From assembly GCA_017407285.1 (NCBI GenBank), contig JAFQWW010000040.1, positions 1-47,681 of the forward strand: 47,681 nt of DNA, in the 5' to 3' direction. The notes under the pieces are model-generated. The model saw only the letters and a list, made by a program, of their open reading frames with translations, was not told the origin of the DNA and made no database searches. Positions 1,043 through 36,223 of this stretch are shown here, piece after piece (within the stretch, counting starts at the first letter, position 1; each line of letters opens with the position of its first letter). Both the position numbers and the translations under genes were made by a program. The DNA comes from Clostridia bacterium (GTDB lineage Bacteria; Bacillota; Clostridia; Christensenellales; RUG350).

Positions 1043-1685
1043 ACTCCTCCAATTTATAAAGAGGAATAAGATCAGTATCGCCGGTATATTGCTCCTCTCT
1101 TACTATATCGTAAAGATTAAATTTTAAATTAAGTCCCTTAATTCCATTCAACAACCTATCAACTCTAAGGTTATTATTACCCGAAGATAATCTTAAGAAA
1201 AGTCCGTCCTCGTCGTAATATATATCAGAGATTAGATTTCTAACCTCCTTTTGAACTAATTTATCTTTTTGGGTATACTCAATAGAGAGGCTATCAGATT
1301 CTTTTACCTCGTCGATGATTTTTTTCTGCTCCTCGGTTAAATCAACGTAAACTCTATAATCACTATAGGTTACGATGCCTGCAACGTTAGGATTTTTCTT
1401 CAATTCGTGAACGGATACGATATCCAAGCCTTTTACGGTTTGGTTAGAAAAGGCTTTAATAAAATCACGAGCGTTCATCTCCGTATCTACGCACATATAT
1501 TCTGCGTTAGACTCAACCGATAGTGGTAATGGCGGTGTAAAATAAACGAGAAAATGAGGATTAAATCCTTCCGAACGTTTAACGACGATACCTGCTCTAG
1601 TGAATCCACGCAAGGTGGAGCGAAGTACGTCCAAGTGAGCCATCAAAGAGGCAGGATAACGTTTTTTGAATTTGATTAACAACAT
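1032..1685 (-). CDS. TIGR03936/DUF2344 radical SAM-associated protein
   Basis: HLD..R...RAGI....SEGFNPH...F.PPLPL.VES.AEY motif; start moved to ATG 1685 (GGAGG upstream); follows TIGR03960 gene. Confidence 0.88.
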   Translation of the reverse strand: MLLIKFKKRYPASLMAHLDVLRSTLRGFTRAGIVVKRSEGFNPHFLVYFTPPLPLSVESNAEYMCVDTEMNARDFIKAFSNQTVKGLDIVSVHELKKNPNVAGIVTYSDYRVYVDLTEEQKKIIDEVKESDSLSIEYTQKDKLVQKEVRNLISDIYYDEDGLFLRLSSGNNNLRVDRLLNGIKGLNLKFNLYDIVREEQYTGDTDLIPLYKLEEYEK

Positions 1686-3469
1686 AACGAGCACCTCCCA
1701 AGTTTGTTAGCACCACACGCATTACAACCTTGCAAACAATTTTTGGTCGTAGTCTCGTCGTACGCTTTTTTACGTTCTTCTTCTAAATAACTACGCAAAA
1801 TACCGCAATCAATGTACTCAAAAGGCATAACACTTGATACATCGCGTTCTTTTACGTACTCGTTCAAATCTATACCACACTCTATCGCACTCTTTTTCCA
1901 AATCTCGCTATGGAAAAACTCCGACCAGCTATCAAAGATCTGACCAGACTCAAAAGCTTTAACTATTACTTTAGAAAGTTTTCTATCTCCTCTTGCCAAA
2001 ACGGCTTCCATATAAGAGGTTTCGTAATCGTGCCAATTATAATGCACGCCACGCATTCTTAATTTCTCACGAAGATATACTAATTTCTCCTCAAATTCTT
2101 CACGACTAATAAACCTTTCCCACTGAAAAGGGGTAACGGGTTTCGGTATAAATACCGAGGTTGAAACCGTTATCGAGAGATTTTTTCCTGAATTTCGATG
2201 TATTTTGTATAGTTCAATGATCGTTTTAACGATATCGGCTATTCCGTCCAAGTCTTCCTTCGTTTCCGTAGGTAAACCTATCATAAAATAAAGTTTTACC
2301 GAAGAATAACCGAGTTTAAATGCCGAAATCATACTTTTTTCAATATCTTCCGACGTGATATTCTTGTTTATAACTGCGCGTAATCTGTCCGTTCCTGCCT
2401 CTGGCGCAAAGGTCAAGGAACTTTTTCTTGCTTCTTCTGCAAACACGCTTTCAAAACTGTCAACGCGCATAGAGGGTAAACTCAAGCGAGTTTTGCCTTC
2501 CCCTGCCGTCTTTAAGTGCTCTATCAATTCTTTAAGTTTAGGATAATCGCCCGTACTCAAACTCGATAAAGACATCTCTTCGTATCCCGTGTCTTTTATA
2601 AGTTTTTCGCCAAAGGTACACAACGTATTCAAATTTCTTGCTCTAAGTGGTCTATAATAAAAACCTGCTTGGCAAAATCTACAACCGTTACTGCACCCTC
2701 TATATAACTCCAAAACTCCTCTATCGTGCACGATTTCCGTATTTGGTAAAAGTATTTTAGTCGGGAAATAGGCTTTATCAAAATCTTGTACAACTGCTTT
2801 TTTGACTATTCTCGTAAAGGAAACTATTTTATCCCCGTCGTATACGGCTTTGTCACGTGAGGGAATAATTACCCCTTGTATCTCGGATAATTTATCTAAT
2901 ACGACCTCTTTCGACCAATTCTTTTGCTTTCCTTCTTTAACGACGTCCACGATCTGCATCATTGACTCTTCGCCCTCGCCTACAGTCATCGCGTCGAAAA
3001 AGTCTGCAAAAGGCTCGGGGTTTGCCATACAAGGTCCCCCTGCTATTATCAAGGGATACTCCTCCCCTCTATCCTTTGCGTAATAAGGTATTCCTGCAAG
3101 TTTTAACATAGCGACTACGTTGGTGTAGGCAAGTTCATATTGGATAGAGAAACCAACTACGTCAAACGCAGTCAACTCGTCACCAGATTCAATAGCCACA
3201 ATAGGTAAATGCTCGCTAACTAATTTTTCATACAAATCAATCCACGGCATAAAACAACGCTCCGCCATACAATCCTCACGCTCGTTGAGCATGTGATAGA
3301 GTATGCGGAGACCTAAGTTACTCATACCTATTTCGTACGTGTCTGGAAAACAAAAACAGAAACGCAAAGCGCCGGGTTTATTAAAATCCGGCAAGTTAAA
3401 TTCACCCCCCGTATAACGGGCGGGTTTGGAAACGGTAGCATACAACCGTTTTCTTTCTTTTTCGTTCAT
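1676..3469 (-). CDS. TIGR03960 family B12-binding radical SAM protein
   Basis: KPARYTGGE, FPDTYEIGMSNLG, CxxxCxxC (RGCSNGCRFCQAG), APEAGT, C-terminal Cys cluster. Confidence 0.9.
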   Translation of the reverse strand: MNEKERKRLYATVSKPARYTGGEFNLPDFNKPGALRFCFCFPDTYEIGMSNLGLRILYHMLNEREDCMAERCFMPWIDLYEKLVSEHLPIVAIESGDELTAFDVVGFSIQYELAYTNVVAMLKLAGIPYYAKDRGEEYPLIIAGGPCMANPEPFADFFDAMTVGEGEESMMQIVDVVKEGKQKNWSKEVVLDKLSEIQGVIIPSRDKAVYDGDKIVSFTRIVKKAVVQDFDKAYFPTKILLPNTEIVHDRGVLELYRGCSNGCRFCQAGFYYRPLRARNLNTLCTFGEKLIKDTGYEEMSLSSLSTGDYPKLKELIEHLKTAGEGKTRLSLPSMRVDSFESVFAEEARKSSLTFAPEAGTDRLRAVINKNITSEDIEKSMISAFKLGYSSVKLYFMIGLPTETKEDLDGIADIVKTIIELYKIHRNSGKNLSITVSTSVFIPKPVTPFQWERFISREEFEEKLVYLREKLRMRGVHYNWHDYETSYMEAVLARGDRKLSKVIVKAFESGQIFDSWSEFFHSEIWKKSAIECGIDLNEYVKERDVSSVMPFEYIDCGILRSYLEEERKKAYDETTTKNCLQGCNACGANKLGRCSLCC

Positions 3470-32206: not shown

Positions 32207-32763
32207 TTCTTATTTCGTTCCGCTTCAGATGCTCTCATATAAAACGGTTTTGCAAAATCAACGGTTTGATTTTTGTTAATTTTGTCTTCAACTACTTGGC
32301 TTAACGCCTCGGGCGTTAGTGTGGTCACGTCTATCTCAACAGCACCATCGGGTAAAACACCGTCCTCTGCCGTTTTATACGTTAAAGAATTGTTAAATTT
32401 TTCCGCTATATAATAGACGTGTTTTGCGTCAATCGCAAAAATTTTATCATCAAAATTATGATATGCAAAGGGTTCGAATGTCGTGACCTCAACTACGGAC
32501 TTTTTATTAGCATATGCAAACGCATTTACTGTTGCAACGCCAACTCTAATACCAGTAAATGATCCAGGTCCCACAGTAACGCCAAAGTAATCAACGTCGT
32601 TTATCGATATCTCTGCATCGTCTAGCAACTTTTCAATTGCAGGCAACAAGGAAACGGAATGACCTTGTCTAACCGTTTCGCTCTTGTATGAATATAATTT
32701 ATCCTCTACCTTTAACGCTATCGTCAAAGAATCACAAGAGGTGTCTATTGAGAGTACTTTCAT
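32203..32763 (-). CDS. tsaB: t6A biosynthesis protein TsaB
   Basis: LSIDTS, HS..LLP.I, GPGSFTGIRVG, IDA, P.Y.R.SEAER. Confidence 0.93.
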   Translation of the reverse strand: MKVLSIDTSCDSLTIALKVEDKLYSYKSETVRQGHSVSLLPAIEKLLDDAEISINDVDYFGVTVGPGSFTGIRVGVATVNAFAYANKKSVVEVTTFEPFAYHNFDDKIFAIDAKHVYYIAEKFNNSLTYKTAEDGVLPDGAVEIDVTTLTPEALSQVVEDKINKNQTVDFAKPFYMRASEAERNKK

Positions 32764-33749
32764 TATCTATCCTCTTTCGTAATAGTTATTTTACGTTTTT
32801 TGCCGTTTGTTTCGATATTTACGGTATACACTCGACCTAATATTGACGGCATTCTATTCCACTCGACGATACATATTCTATCTCGTGAAAAATATTCTTC
32901 AAAGCCTAAATTCTCAAGTTCTTCATCGTCTTCAATTCTATACATATCAAAGTGACAAAGTTTACCGTCTAAATATTCTTTTAATATATTGAAAGTAGGA
33001 CTCAAAACGTCCTCTTTAACACCAAAACTTTGCGCAATTCCTCTAGCAAAAACAGTTTTACCTGCGCCAAGATCGCCGTTTAATAGTACGGTATCTCCAA
33101 AATTCAATTCTTTAGCAAACGCCTTTGCTAAACTTAGAGTTTCGTTTGCGCTATTCGTGATAAAAACGTTCTCGCTCTTAATATCGTAATTCTTCTCTTT
33201 TTTCTCGGCAACGCCAATAAATCGGAAAAACTTATGTATTTGTTTGTATAAAAGAAACGTTAATATAGAATTTGCACCCGCTTTCACTAAGTTAAATAAA
33301 AGTATGGCAGGAATCATACCTACGACAACCTCTATTGCAATTCCACCAAAAAGTGGGTGTGCTAACAAATTTGCAGGGATAATTACGACCATCCAAGAGA
33401 AAAATCCGCAAATTAGAGCTAAAATAGCGCCTTTTATGTTTCTTTTTCTTTGATAAATAAGCCCCGCCACTAATGCGTAAACGCCAGTAGCTAGTAAATG
33501 CATAATAAATCCGGTCAATCCCGAGCCACCCATTGCAAAGGCTTGTATTACGCATACAACGAAGGTAATAATCAGTCCGGACACAGGACCATACATAAAG
33601 GTCCCTAAAAATATAAAGACGTCCGCAACGTCGTATAGCATATAGTTTGGTGTAAACGGAAAAGGAAATTGTATTCCTAAAGCTAAGCTAACGATGCTAA
33701 GCGCCGATAGCATCGCCATTCCAGTCAACATTCTAGTAGTAATTTTCAT
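32763..33749 (-). CDS. tsaE: In-frame fusion: RibU-type ECF transporter S component (about aa 1-175) + t6A ATPase TsaE (about aa 194-328)
   Basis: N-terminal 5-6 TMs with FP....YM.YD.AD, G.F.YGP..G, FNL.K; C-terminal GDLGAGKT, SPTF, HFDMYR, IVEW; no stop in linker. Confidence 0.9.
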   Translation of the reverse strand: MKITTRMLTGMAMLSALSIVSLALGIQFPFPFTPNYMLYDVADVFIFLGTFMYGPVSGLIITFVVCVIQAFAMGGSGLTGFIMHLLATGVYALVAGLIYQRKRNIKGAILALICGFFSWMVVIIPANLLAHPLFGGIAIEVVVGMIPAILLFNLVKAGANSILTFLLYKQIHKFFRFIGVAEKKEKNYDIKSENVFITNSANETLSLAKAFAKELNFGDTVLLNGDLGAGKTVFARGIAQSFGVKEDVLSPTFNILKEYLDGKLCHFDMYRIEDDEELENLGFEEYFSRDRICIVEWNRMPSILGRVYTVNIETNGKKRKITITKEDR

Positions 33750-33775
33750 TTGTTAAACTCCTTCCGTACCCTTTT

Positions 33776-33802
33776 AAAAACCCCTATACGAGGCATAGGG
33801 GT
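33776..33802 (-). terminator. Expression-platform terminator of FMN riboswitch
   Basis: Minus strand CCCCTAT-GCCTCGT-ATAGGGG-TTTTT between aptamer and SD. Confidence 0.8.
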
Positions 33803-33810
33803 ACGCTTGA

Positions 33811-33915
33811 TATTCTCTCATCCAGACTATACTGTCGGTCAAGGAATTACACCTTGTCTGCTTACGCTCGTGGACTTTTACCACCGGTGGGGACTTTCAC
33901 CCCGCCCCGAAATCT
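33811..33915 (-). ncRNA. FMN (RFN) riboswitch aptamer
   Basis: Minus strand TTCGGGGCGGGGTGAAAGTCCCCACCGGTGGTAAAAGTCCACGA...GACAAGGTGTAATTCCTTGACCGACAGTATAGTCTGGATGAGAGAA matches the RFN consensus; upstream of RibU-type gene. Confidence 0.95.
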
Positions 33916-33932
33916 ATATGGAATTCTGTTGT

Positions 33933-34571
33933 TTATCCTTCGACGATTTTATCGCCGGCACTCGTGCCGAGTCTAGTCGCTCCAGCATCTATAAGTTCTT
34001 TCGCAAAATTGTAATCTCTAATGCCTCCGGCAGCTTTTACTTGACATTTGCCGTTTACTGCCTTCTTCATAAGTTGAACGTGGTGAACGGTTGCTCCCGT
34101 TCCAAAAAATCCAGTTGACGTTTTAACGAATGCAACGCCTGCGTCTGCGCAAATTTCGCAACCTTTTACAACTTGCTCGTCCGTTAAATGACAGGTTTCT
34201 AATATAACTTTTAGAGGAACGCCACACGCATCAACTATGCTCTTTACGTCACGATACACGTAGTCGTAATCTCCAGATACGAGTCTTGACACGGGAATAA
34301 CAACGTCGACCTCTTCTGCACCACACTTAACCGCATATTCCGCTTCCTTTGCGCGAATAATCGTTTCACTCTCTCCGAAAGGAAAACCTGCAACGGACAC
34401 GGTCTTTATATCACTACCTTTCAAAAGTTCTTTAACTAAGGTTACGTAATTAGGATTGACACACACAGAGTAAAATCCATACTTTAGTGCAGATTCACAA
34501 TGTTTCTCAATATCAAAAGGCGTAGCCGTAGTTTTCAATATGGTATGATCTATGTATTTTGCTATATTCAT
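33933..34571 (-). CDS. deoC: Deoxyribose-phosphate aldolase
   Basis: IDHTILK, GFPFG, KVILET, FVKTSTGF, VKAAGGIR, RLGTS. Confidence 0.95.
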   Translation of the reverse strand: MNIAKYIDHTILKTTATPFDIEKHCESALKYGFYSVCVNPNYVTLVKELLKGSDIKTVSVAGFPFGESETIIRAKEAEYAVKCGAEEVDVVIPVSRLVSGDYDYVYRDVKSIVDACGVPLKVILETCHLTDEQVVKGCEICADAGVAFVKTSTGFFGTGATVHHVQLMKKAVNGKCQVKAAGGIRDYNFAKELIDAGATRLGTSAGDKIVEG

Positions 34572-34578
34572 ACTAACC

Positions 34579-35880
34579 TCAATATAGAATTATTTCTCCT
34601 ACAGAATTTATTTTAGCATATATAAGGCGTGGTTTGTCAAGTGATTCACGACGAACCTCAAATACGGAAGAAAATTTTTCATAAATTTCATCACTTAAAC
34701 ACTCATTTGAGTAAACCTTACACAAGACGTCTCCTTTTTTGACCTCTAAAGACACGCAAACGTTATTTATAACGCCCACGGTATAGTCTATAACGTCCTC
34801 TTTTTTACGACGGCCACCGCCTAAATCACATACTAGTTCGCCTAGTTTTTCTGCGTGAATTTTGTGAACGAAACCGTCTTCTTTTGCTAGTATTTCAGTA
34901 ACAACGGGAGCAACTTTTAGTGAAGATAAATCTCCGCCTTGATGAGCAATCATTTGATTAAACTTTTCATACGCAGTACCGTCGTCCAAGACTTTACAAA
35001 CCTTAAAAAACGCTTCTGCATAATCAATATTCTCACACTCTGATACGACGTTTGAAGCAAGCGCTACGGAAAGATCACGAAGCCTATTTTTATCTCCCTT
35101 CAAAACGCCAATAGCACCCTCAATCTCCAAAGAATTGCCAACGTACTTGCTCAAAGGTTCATTCATATCGGTTATCATAGCAATAGTCTTAACCCCTTCT
35201 CGTCTACCGATAGCACACATGGTTTCGGCTAATGAGAGCGCATCAGAGAAGTTTTTCATAAAGGCACCGTCACCGTATTTGACGTCCAAAATGATCAAAT
35301 CTCCTGCTGACGCCAATTTTTTACTCATAATACTTGCAGAAATTAGCGCAATATTGTCAACAGTTGCGGTAACGTCACGCAATGCGTACAAAATTTTATC
35401 CGCAGGACACAAATCGGGAGTTTGACCAACGATACAAAATCCTATTTCATTTAACTGATTTTCTATATATTCTTTTGATAGAGAAGAAGACAAGCCTTTT
35501 ATACTATCAAGCTTATCTATCGTTCCGCCAGTATGTCCTAGCCCTCTTCCACTCATCTTAACGCTTTTATAACCAAGAGATGCGAGTATAGGCATAATAA
35601 TAAAACTCGTACTATCGCCCACGCCACCCGTACTATGTTTGTCAACCTTTATACCGTCAACGTGAGAATAGTCCATTACCACTCCGGAGTCACGCATAGC
35701 GCGCGTTAGATATAGGGTTTCGTCAAAGTCAAAACCTTTCAAGCAAATAGCCATAAGCAGTGCACTTGCTTGATAATCGGCAACGTCACCTTGAACTACA
35801 CCGTCAACAAAAAACTTGATTTCCTCTTCACTCAAAGAAAAACCGTGCTTTTTTTTGTTAATAATATCAACTATTTTCAT
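34579..35880 (-). CDS. pdp: Pyrimidine-nucleoside (thymidine) phosphorylase
   Basis: DKHSTGGVGD, KMSGRGLGHTGGT.DKL, YALRDVTATV, SIMSKK; start ATG 35880 after AGGAG. Confidence 0.94.
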   Translation of the reverse strand: MKIVDIINKKKHGFSLSEEEIKFFVDGVVQGDVADYQASALLMAICLKGFDFDETLYLTRAMRDSGVVMDYSHVDGIKVDKHSTGGVGDSTSFIIMPILASLGYKSVKMSGRGLGHTGGTIDKLDSIKGLSSSLSKEYIENQLNEIGFCIVGQTPDLCPADKILYALRDVTATVDNIALISASIMSKKLASAGDLIILDVKYGDGAFMKNFSDALSLAETMCAIGRREGVKTIAMITDMNEPLSKYVGNSLEIEGAIGVLKGDKNRLRDLSVALASNVVSECENIDYAEAFFKVCKVLDDGTAYEKFNQMIAHQGGDLSSLKVAPVVTEILAKEDGFVHKIHAEKLGELVCDLGGGRRKKEDVIDYTVGVINNVCVSLEVKKGDVLCKVYSNECLSDEIYEKFSSVFEVRRESLDKPRLIYAKINSVGEIILY

Positions 35881-36223
35881 TCTTTCTCCTACTGGCAAAA
35901 ATTGCTAGAACTTGTTTTACGAGTTGTTCTCGTTCTAAACCGCCTTTAGAATTTAAGCGTTTTATCAAGGAATATGCGTGCAAATCAATAATAACGTTTG
36001 CATTTACACCGCTTACATTCTCAATTTCCCGTTCAATATCGTGACAAATGGATATATTCTCGCTTCTTAAATATATCGGCTCACATATTATAGCGACGTA
36101 AATCTCACTATAATATCTAAAAGACTCTGCGCGCTCTACTTTGTCGTGGCTTAAAGCAATATTAACCGCATCACTTGGCGTAAAAAGCATAGCCATTGCT
36201 AACACAGCACAAAAAAATTTCAT
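35867..36223 (-). CDS. Small exported protein, possibly YhcN/YlaJ-like sporulation protein
   Basis: Hydrophobic N-terminus; V..A......YVAI ... V.V..D...Y..I..L pattern; strong SD GGAGG; family call is weak. Confidence 0.5.
   Translation of the reverse strand: MKFFCAVLAMAMLFTPSDAVNIALSHDKVERAESFRYYSEIYVAIICEPIYLRSENISICHDIEREIENVSGVNANVIIDLHAYSLIKRLNSKGGLEREQLVKQVLAIFASRRKNENS

Follow-up and report, generated by a model that had tools for sequence, protein, structure and literature searches.

The riboflavin S component RibU/FmnP (solved structures 3P5N and 5KBW/5KC0) has a six-helix membrane fold, is encoded behind a flavin mononucleotide (FMN) riboswitch and depends on a shared energy-coupling factor (ECF) module encoded elsewhere. 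TsaE (YjeE/YdiB; solved structures 5MVR/5NP9, 1HTW and 6N9A/6S84), a component of the machinery that makes N6-threonylcarbamoyladenosine (t6A) in tRNA, is known as a free soluble protein of ~135–170 residues. It is essential in model bacteria, and some literature reportedly treats the family as a protein kinase, "UbK". According to the accessible part of PMC6614819, the TsaE ATPase is needed for multi-turnover t6A synthesis, and tRNA and TsaE share one cavity of TsaB–TsaD. Fusions within the t6A pathway are on record, and the accessible part of PMC4615747 describes Kae1–Bud32 in archaea and TsaC–HemK in Mycoplasma genitalium, without mention of a fusion of TsaE to a transporter. Here we analyze a stretch of 47,681 nucleotides from a Clostridia bacterium (assembly GCA_017407285.1, contig JAFQWW010000040.1, positions 1–47,681; hereafter the window, with G000 denoting the host genome), in which a RibU domain and a TsaE domain are encoded by a single gene.

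The gene is one open reading frame (ORF) of 328 codons, starting with ATG and occupying positions 32763..33749 of the minus strand (Table 1). An earlier note on this DNA had described the ORF as a RibU domain, a charged linker and a TsaE domain with the motif GDLGAGKT. The ORF listing and Pfam confirmed this description, to which we add the strand, unstated at the time. The membrane half matched PF12822 (ECF_trnsprt; residues 6–168, E = 7.6e-16, 59 bits against a cut-off of 30.7) and, marginally, PF07155 (ECF-ribofla_trS; residues 2–172, 27.6 bits against a cut-off of 26.7). The other half matched PF02367 (TsaE; residues 199–319, E = 2.4e-36, 124.9 bits against a cut-off of 26.6) as well as the NCBIfam equivalog model for TsaE, TIGR00150 (117.6 bits against 60.1). 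The score against the enterobacterial TsaE model NF007931 was below the cut-off (87.2 vs 246), which is unsurprising given how distant the organism is. Chance falls far short of explaining two full-length domain matches of such significance within a single frame.

An AlphaFold2 model, built from 44 fused sequences, had a mean confidence (pLDDT) of 89.2 and showed six membrane helices (residues 5–23, 42–53, 55–72, 78–101, 105–135 and 139–178), then a low-confidence stretch at about residues 179–194, and finally an alpha/beta domain. Over residues 171–190 the block means of pLDDT were 77 and 65. This region holds the linker, AEKKEKNYDIKSEN, which is charged, ~18 residues long and variable in both length and sequence among the aligned orthologues. 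In Foldseek searches, the RibU half superposed on Thermotoga maritima RibU (5kbw) with a TM score of 0.90 and on the Staphylococcus aureus protein (3p5n) with a score of 0.85, both normalized to the target, while the TsaE half gave scores of 0.67–0.76 to Bacillus subtilis YdiB (0.76 for 5np9), Haemophilus influenzae HI0065 and T. maritima TsaE. No solved chain in these searches spanned both halves, each of which was matched separately. A profile search against solved structures likewise assigned the membrane half to RibU (E = 1e-41 and 5e-36 for the best matches, 9e-5 for FolT). The sequence alignment of the RibU half to 3p5n and 5kbw runs from one end to the other, and the junction lies where the solved RibU proteins end.

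Positive charges cluster at the N-terminus (K2, R6), in the loop QRKRNIK that follows helix 4 (residues 100–106) and in the tail that follows helix 6 (K169, H172, K173, R176). Together with the helix order, this positive-inside pattern places the C-terminus, and hence TsaE, in the cytoplasm, in keeping with the membrane-tethered TsaE that had been envisaged. Among the 44 fused proteins, the residues invariant in the RibU half (G54, G80, Y99, F152-N153 and Y168-K169) are mostly shared with solved RibU proteins. In the TsaE half, G225, G228, A229, G230, K231 and T232 of Walker A are invariant, and so are S250-P251-T252, H266, D268, Y270-R271 and E296-W297. These fall within what we take to be the signature motifs of the TsaE family, namely SPT, HxDxYR and EW in addition to Walker A, and the alignment shows the P-loop, SPT, HxDxYR and EW residues to be identical in B. 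subtilis YdiB.

Despite these similarities, the protein departs from both of its parent families. Solved and typical RibU proteins end ~10–13 residues after the YK/YR motif (free RibU tails in relatives measure 10–48 residues), whereas the fusion continues into a 134-residue ATPase domain. Known TsaE proteins share with the fused one the fold, the equivalog model, the signature residues, the tsaE–tsaB–rimI gene order and a tsaD located elsewhere. Unlike them, however, the fused TsaE has its N-terminus tied to a membrane protein, lacks a start codon of its own and is encoded behind an FMN riboswitch. The fusion also resembles Kae1–Bud32 and TsaC–HemK in that a t6A component is joined to a neighbor, but those fusions bring together soluble partners and, in the case of Kae1–Bud32, subunits of one complex. 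Taken singly, neither half is unusual for its family; what is new is the way they are combined, and what follows from it.

The absence of a start codon at the TsaE boundary, already remarked upon in the earlier note, held in a scan of the coding DNA: no in-frame ATG, GTG or TTG occurs between a GTG at codon 155, which sits within the last membrane helix, and a TTG at codon 215. The latter is only 10 residues before Walker A, and a start there would drop the first strand and helix of TsaE. By comparison, free-standing TsaE proteins of relatives start 31–34 residues before Walker A in five of eight split loci and 38–47 residues before it in the other three. The position in the window equivalent to such a start is residue 193/194, where the codons specify Glu and Asn. 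The fused gene of a relative of the same genus, G003, similarly has no ATG, GTG or TTG between codons 165 and 217. The fusion is the sole TsaE match in the host genome, where TsaE appears to be translatable only as part of the fusion, as had been proposed.

The junction is supported by independent sequence data. Logan contigs of three runs, coming from two studies, bridge positions 33160–33240 with no gaps. Those of X1 and X2 (one study) show no differences to the window, while the bridging contig of X4, a sheep metagenome from another study, carries 16 substitutions. Across the whole ORF, the X4 strain has 23 base differences, none of which creates a stop or a new start codon; 19 of them are silent, suggesting purifying selection along the entire frame. 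The four residue changes are K184R, I190F, S192G and D226N, three of them in the linker.

Nor is the fusion unique to this assembly. In a comparison set of 40 related genomes, it was present as a single ORF in six, three from the same genus (G001, G002 and G003, 62–65% identity), one from the same family (G005) and two from other families of the order (G034 and G040). In a collection of 5.8 billion proteins, PF02367 and PF12822 occurred together in 62 protein clusters among the matches listed (120 of 184), and these clusters spanned 31–100% identity and lengths of 273–480 residues. Some of them are found on dozens of contigs, and they are present in NCBI nr and UniRef, where they are named TsaE. 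A class-wide scan of 400 genomes returned the fusion in G000, G040 and G284 among the matches listed (150 of 673). All fused genomes seen are small (1.2–1.7 Mb), an association that is only suggestive, as kin are not independent.

The same comparison revealed where the fusion is likely to have come from. Separate, co-oriented ribU and tsaE genes, in this order, were found in 14 of the 40 relatives, and divergent ones in three. The series FMN riboswitch–ribU–tsaE–tsaB–rimI, with all genes separate, is frequent both within this order of Clostridia and outside it; the cultured Soehngenia longivitae (L007) and Thermovorax subterraneus (L008) have it too. Such split loci, G004 being a further example, resemble the window in gene order, orientation and the riboswitch before ribU; they differ in having two ORFs, which are 2–192 nt apart or overlapping. 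Five candidates initially taken as fused (L007, L008, L043, G009 and G035), whose matches spanned both halves, turned out to have two ORFs when mapped and were counted as split. In L007, L008, L043, L098 and L104, ribU is followed by a terminator and tsaE is preceded by a promoter-like site, indicating that tsaE is expressed on its own at these loci. In G004 (locus L092), the intergenic stretch 1355–1431 on the minus strand holds, by eye, a near-consensus TTGCAA-17-TATAAT ending 6 nt before the tsaE ATG, an arrangement from which a tsaE mRNA with little or no leader would result. At the opposite extreme, the two genes of L101 (G014), L108 (G038) and L109 (G039) are separated by 16 or 2 nt or overlap. 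The FMN riboswitch, present in L101 and L108, thus probably governs tsaE–tsaB–rimI as well in some unfused genomes; our literature search found no report of t6A genes in an FMN regulon.

We placed 70 sequences, either fused or concatenated from split loci, in a maximum-likelihood tree, where the fused forms are scattered among the split ones. The fused/split label requires nine changes, at least five of which are forced by well-supported branches. Grouping all fused forms in one clade is rejected by an approximately unbiased (AU) test (p = 7e-69), and we conclude that the fusion arose or reverted several times.

The fused gene is also the only source of either function that we could identify in the host. 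The genome (1.19 Mb in 85 contigs) is 84% complete, so that absences such as those of lumazine synthase (ribH) or a second tsaE are not proven for this genome alone. Within it, a search for another tsaE or ribU found none: besides being the sole TsaE match, the fusion is alone in passing the Pfam cut-off as an S component; two ORFs on other contigs resemble S components more weakly. In G001, G002, G003, G005 and G034, one match each to the whole fusion query was obtained. The host further encodes an ecfA–ecfA'–ecfT–truA row on contig C35 (two ABC ATPase genes, a CbiQ/EcfT gene and truA, i.e., a group II organization), tsaD on contig C68 and a flavokinase. No lumazine synthase turned up in the six genomes searched for it, namely G000 and the 90–97% complete G001, G003, G004, G005 and G034. 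This gene content implies that both halves are probably needed. Riboflavin binding and import by the RibU half would agree with the lack of ribH, the presence of flavokinase and the conserved residues, and these bacteria would be riboflavin auxotrophs relying on one protein for both vitamin uptake and the TsaE step.

Directly upstream of the fusion, 57 nt from its start codon and on the same strand, lies an FMN riboswitch aptamer (Table 1), which the earlier note did not mention. Its presence confirms the predicted riboflavin specificity of the S component. The aptamer was found upstream of ribU in 25 of 31 related loci scanned and is kept in five of six fused relatives plus the window. The six scanned loci without it were L091, L094, L107 and L109, which hold ribU, and L111 and L113, which hold only tsaE; in L091, L107 and L109 no FMN riboswitch appeared even at E ≤ 0.1. 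The first of these, L091, is the locus of G005, from a sister genus; its fused gene (1489–2460, minus strand) has no FMN riboswitch within ~1.5 kb upstream.

Between aptamer and start codon, a putative expression platform resembles a weak intrinsic terminator, although a pattern scan of the region did not call the hairpin at 33776..33801. The leader folded no better than shuffled sequences (z-scores not significant), and in one of the folds the Shine–Dalgarno sequence is paired with a stretch lying 5' of the aptamer. In the leaders of relatives, this position is taken by GC-rich hairpins that are much stronger and have U runs, making transcriptional attenuation likely in this clade. Downstream, the overlaps between fusion, tsaB and rimI give the block the look of one translationally coupled operon, so that tsaE–tsaB–rimI is placed behind a predicted flavin-sensing leader.

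Table 1. Coordinates of the fused gene's domains and of the adjacent features in the window.
Feature	Positions	Strand	Evidence and remarks
RibU domain, six-helix riboflavin ECF S component, residues 1–178	33216..33749	minus	Pfam, AlphaFold2, Foldseek, alignment
Linker, residues 179–194, charged	33168..33215	minus	Low model confidence; variable among orthologues
TsaE domain, residues 195–328, ATPase subunit of the t6A threonylcarbamoyl-transfer complex	32766..33167	minus	Pfam, TIGR00150, Foldseek, motifs
Walker A/P-loop GDLGAGKT, residues 225–232	33054..33077	minus	Sequence; alignment of 44 fused proteins
FMN riboswitch aptamer (RFN element, RF00050)	33806..33918	minus	105.2 bits vs gathering cut-off 66.2, E = 1.6e-24, model positions 1–138 (full)
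Putative expression platform: 7-bp hairpin CCCCUAU/AUAGGGG, 7-nt loop, then five U	33776..33801	minus	Read from sequence
Shine–Dalgarno-like GGAAGGAG, 8 nt before the fusion ATG	33758..33765	minus	Read from sequence
Promoter-like TAGACT-18-TAAAAT upstream of the riboswitch	33946..33975	minus	9 of 12 positions; weak, count not above shuffles
tsaB, 186 aa	32203..32763	minus	PF00814, E = 2.2e-20; ATG overlaps the fusion stop by 1 nt (TAATG)
rimI-like GNAT acetyltransferase, 146 aa	31766..32206	minus	PF00583, E = 7.2e-22; overlaps tsaB by 4 bases

On the other side of the riboswitch (33933–35898, minus strand) there are two ORFs, of 212 and 439 aa, which by eye we take to be a deoxyribose-phosphate aldolase and a pyrimidine-nucleoside phosphorylase, respectively. 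The promoter-like site at 33946..33975 falls within the 3' end of the former, deoC-like ORF, whose stop is 15 nt from the aptamer, so that read-through transcription into the riboswitch is possible. In gut metagenome runs, contig depth was ~10–20 fold higher over the aptamer (33813–33911), with many loose ends. We attribute this to conserved aptamers of other organisms in the sample mapping there, rather than to a feature of the locus. Another variant of the leader was seen in G034 (locus L090, 1246–1473), where the 229 nt from aptamer to fusion contain a pair of terminator-like hairpins, one after the other, with AT-rich sequence behind them; a second promoter bypassing the riboswitch is possible there.

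TsaE domains attached to other partners were encountered as well. Six proteins of 354–445 aa (P0101, P0108, P0111, P0116, P0118 and P0120) carry TsaE C-terminal to a PAP2-family integral membrane phosphatase, and the domain order was confirmed for P0101, P0118 and P0120. As in the fusion described here, TsaE follows an integral membrane domain, but the partner differs from RibU, making this a second, unrelated kind of membrane-anchored TsaE. P0100 is a TsaE–TsaB fusion of 507 aa and P0114 a release factor (PCRF and RF-1 domains) of 499 aa with a C-terminal TsaE. Judging from these predicted proteins, TsaE tolerates covalent attachment. A further protein, P0086 (368 aa), has two ECF S-component stretches, which would make it a tandem S component unless a pair was mis-joined.

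Taken together, the data point to a single bifunctional chain, and we consider this the probable explanation. The N-terminal RibU would act in the membrane as a riboflavin S component, using the shared EcfA–EcfA'–EcfT module encoded on another contig, while the C-terminal TsaE would hang in the cytoplasm on its flexible ~18-residue linker and, as the only TsaE of the cell, would reset TsaB–TsaD after each t6A transfer. The fusion presumably arose because in this clostridial order ribU is the immediate upstream neighbor of tsaE–tsaB–rimI: once the stop codon of ribU, the terminator and the tsaE promoter were lost, the two genes would have become one, an event that would have happened, or been reversed, several times as a by-product of tight adjacency in streamlined genomes. 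As a consequence, tsaE, and probably also the translationally coupled tsaB and rimI, would have come to lie behind the FMN riboswitch. Both halves would be active, the protein would stay uncleaved and the tether would have no special function. The fusion resembles a case of genome compaction more than it does a novel mechanism. The neutral fusion of neighbors that the earlier note had offered as its second option is favored by the comparison between fused relatives and those with ribU directly before a separate tsaE. Its first option, a physical link of riboflavin uptake to t6A synthesis, found no backing beyond shared transcription and translation.

Some observations weigh against this explanation. 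To place an essential TsaE behind an FMN-repressed leader is awkward; the putative platform hairpin is weak and went uncalled by the scan. The awkwardness may ease if the terminator is weak, if flavin is chronically limiting in an auxotroph, or if there are undetected internal promoters. The single 37-kDa product is predicted from the DNA, and internal in-frame starts do occur near the ancestral TsaE start in other fused genes: GTG at codon 192 in G001, TTG at codon 203 in G002, TTG at codon 199 in G034 and, in G005, a TTG at codon 186 that is exactly 32 codons before Walker A and is preceded by GGAGG, apparently the old tsaE start. A separate TsaE may be made in these lineages, and the G005 fusion may be younger or differently resolved, still able to make free TsaE. 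The incompleteness of the host genome, mentioned above, is to be counted here too. The tree came from a quick search, has several long branches and includes fused rows that were gathered by a fused-protein search, i.e., by biased sampling. Finally, repeated independent fusion could mean that the fusion was selected, rather than neutral.

Four other explanations were weighed. The notion that TsaE is released as a separate soluble protein, through non-canonical internal initiation, an internal transcript or proteolysis of the linker, with the fusion being a feature of the reading frame only, draws on the plausible internal starts kept in several orthologues, particularly those of G005 and G001. 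In the window itself, the linker DNA has an A/G-rich stretch followed 9 nt on by an ATT codon (codon 190), and the ORF contains promoter-like hexamers, one of them at 33340..33313. However, the stretches free of ATG, GTG and TTG in the window and in G003 argue against it; the ATT codon is lost in the second strain, where I190 is replaced by F; and the linkers differ in sequence, hence no conserved cleavage site is apparent. The promoter scan of the region returned 15 sites vs 11.0 (sd 3.8) in shuffled sequences; as the count is not above shuffles, an internal promoter is not supported by the scan. One candidate in the linker DNA, TTGCCG-17-TACGAT, matched by eye at 8 of 12 positions, below the scan threshold, and was not relied on; it coincides with the place of TTGCAA-17-TATAAT before the separate tsaE of G004. 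A search of sequencing runs for the locus listed none on record as RNA; run X8, which is labelled RNA-Seq and is probably DNA, covers only 11 of 30 bins. Overall, we regard the release of a separate TsaE as unlikely. It is much less credible that one half has decayed, leaving RibU as a mere anchor or TsaE as an inactive tail. The match of the membrane half to PF07155 was indeed only just above the cut-off and no NCBIfam S-component model matched, but the RibU half can be aligned to solved RibU proteins over its whole length and keeps the family-invariant residues, its model superposes with a TM score of 0.90, the FMN riboswitch is retained in a flavokinase-encoding genome where neither another RibU nor ribH was found, the TsaE motifs are all intact in what is the sole copy, and the substitutions in the second strain are mostly silent. 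As for an assembly or sequencing artefact, in which a missed stop or frameshift joins two genes, the fragmented, metagenome-type host assembly might invite the suspicion. It is effectively refuted by the gap-free crossing of the junction by independent contigs and by the single-ORF orthologues in six other genomes and in 61 other protein clusters among the matches listed, so that we attach next to no weight to it.

The remaining possibility is a functional coupling, whereby the RibU tether and the FMN leader tie the dosage, location or activity of the t6A machinery to flavin status, or the TsaE ATPase modulates the traffic of the S component with the ECF module. Recurrent fixation can indicate benefit, and in this case the fused or split state changed at least five times, with fused forms not making up one clade; the ribU–tsaE neighborhood extends across many families, including the three divergent arrangements; elsewhere, TsaE forms the C-terminal part of fusions with a different membrane protein, PAP2; and the riboswitch has mostly been kept along with the fusion. 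Yet flavin–t6A chemistry is not known in established pathway knowledge, as represented for example by the accessible part of PMC4615747. Many split loci have a terminator and a promoter-like site between the genes, therefore separate regulation is the ancestral state. The fused gene of G005 lacks the riboswitch altogether, the linker is short, variable and of low model confidence, as expected for a passive tether, and the fusion is rare among the matches listed for the class-wide sample. Tight adjacency alone offers ample opportunity for repeated fusion. A complex prediction for the TsaE domain plus linker with TsaB and TsaD of the host (score 0.01, mark 0.32, run without controls) spoke neither for nor against. 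We consider functional coupling unlikely. An adaptive tether, through which t6A reset and fidelity on ANN codons would be dosed or localized by the supply of vitamin B2 in small-genome auxotrophs, or through which the TsaE ATPase cycle would influence the engagement of RibU with the ECF module, seems to us similarly improbable; repeated fusion and the PAP2–TsaE proteins are compatible with it, but do not show it.

With regard to novelty, we found no description of a RibU–TsaE fusion in the open full-text literature, a search that covered neither subscription journals nor supplements nor InterPro architecture tables. The accessible parts of 10.1101/2025.10.13.681863, PMC4993169, PMC10792529, PMC9654439 and PMC6614819 do not describe one. 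Two t6A reviews, in their accessible parts, bring up TsaC–HemK and Kae1–Bud32 but no RibU–TsaE protein. The earlier statement that no description was known holds as far as papers are concerned, whereas the proteins themselves had already been deposited in NCBI nr and UniRef under the name of TsaE. The missing S-component label stems from the failure of all S-component models of NCBIfam to match the fusion at E ≤ 0.001.

The finding has a practical bearing on annotation. As annotation pipelines label the fused proteins only "TsaE", metabolic reconstructions of these gut bacteria miss their riboflavin uptake, and a reconstruction with neither ribH nor an annotated ribU would wrongly predict that they have no flavin source. 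The fusion also offers a handle on whether TsaE must diffuse freely and on whether an S component tolerates cytoplasmic cargo.

If the protein is indeed made as one chain, membrane anchoring would be shown to be compatible with the work of TsaE, the essential ATPase of the reset step, TsaB–TsaD would have to visit the membrane in every catalytic cycle, and a t6A operon would sit behind a vitamin-sensing riboswitch. The S component, for its part, would have a cytoplasmic domain of 15 kDa attached to its last helix, presumably without losing the ability to topple and exchange on the shared EcfT scaffold. The fusion probably does not reveal a new mechanism; if neutral, it would be a clean example of the recurrent fusion of neighboring genes in streamlined genomes.

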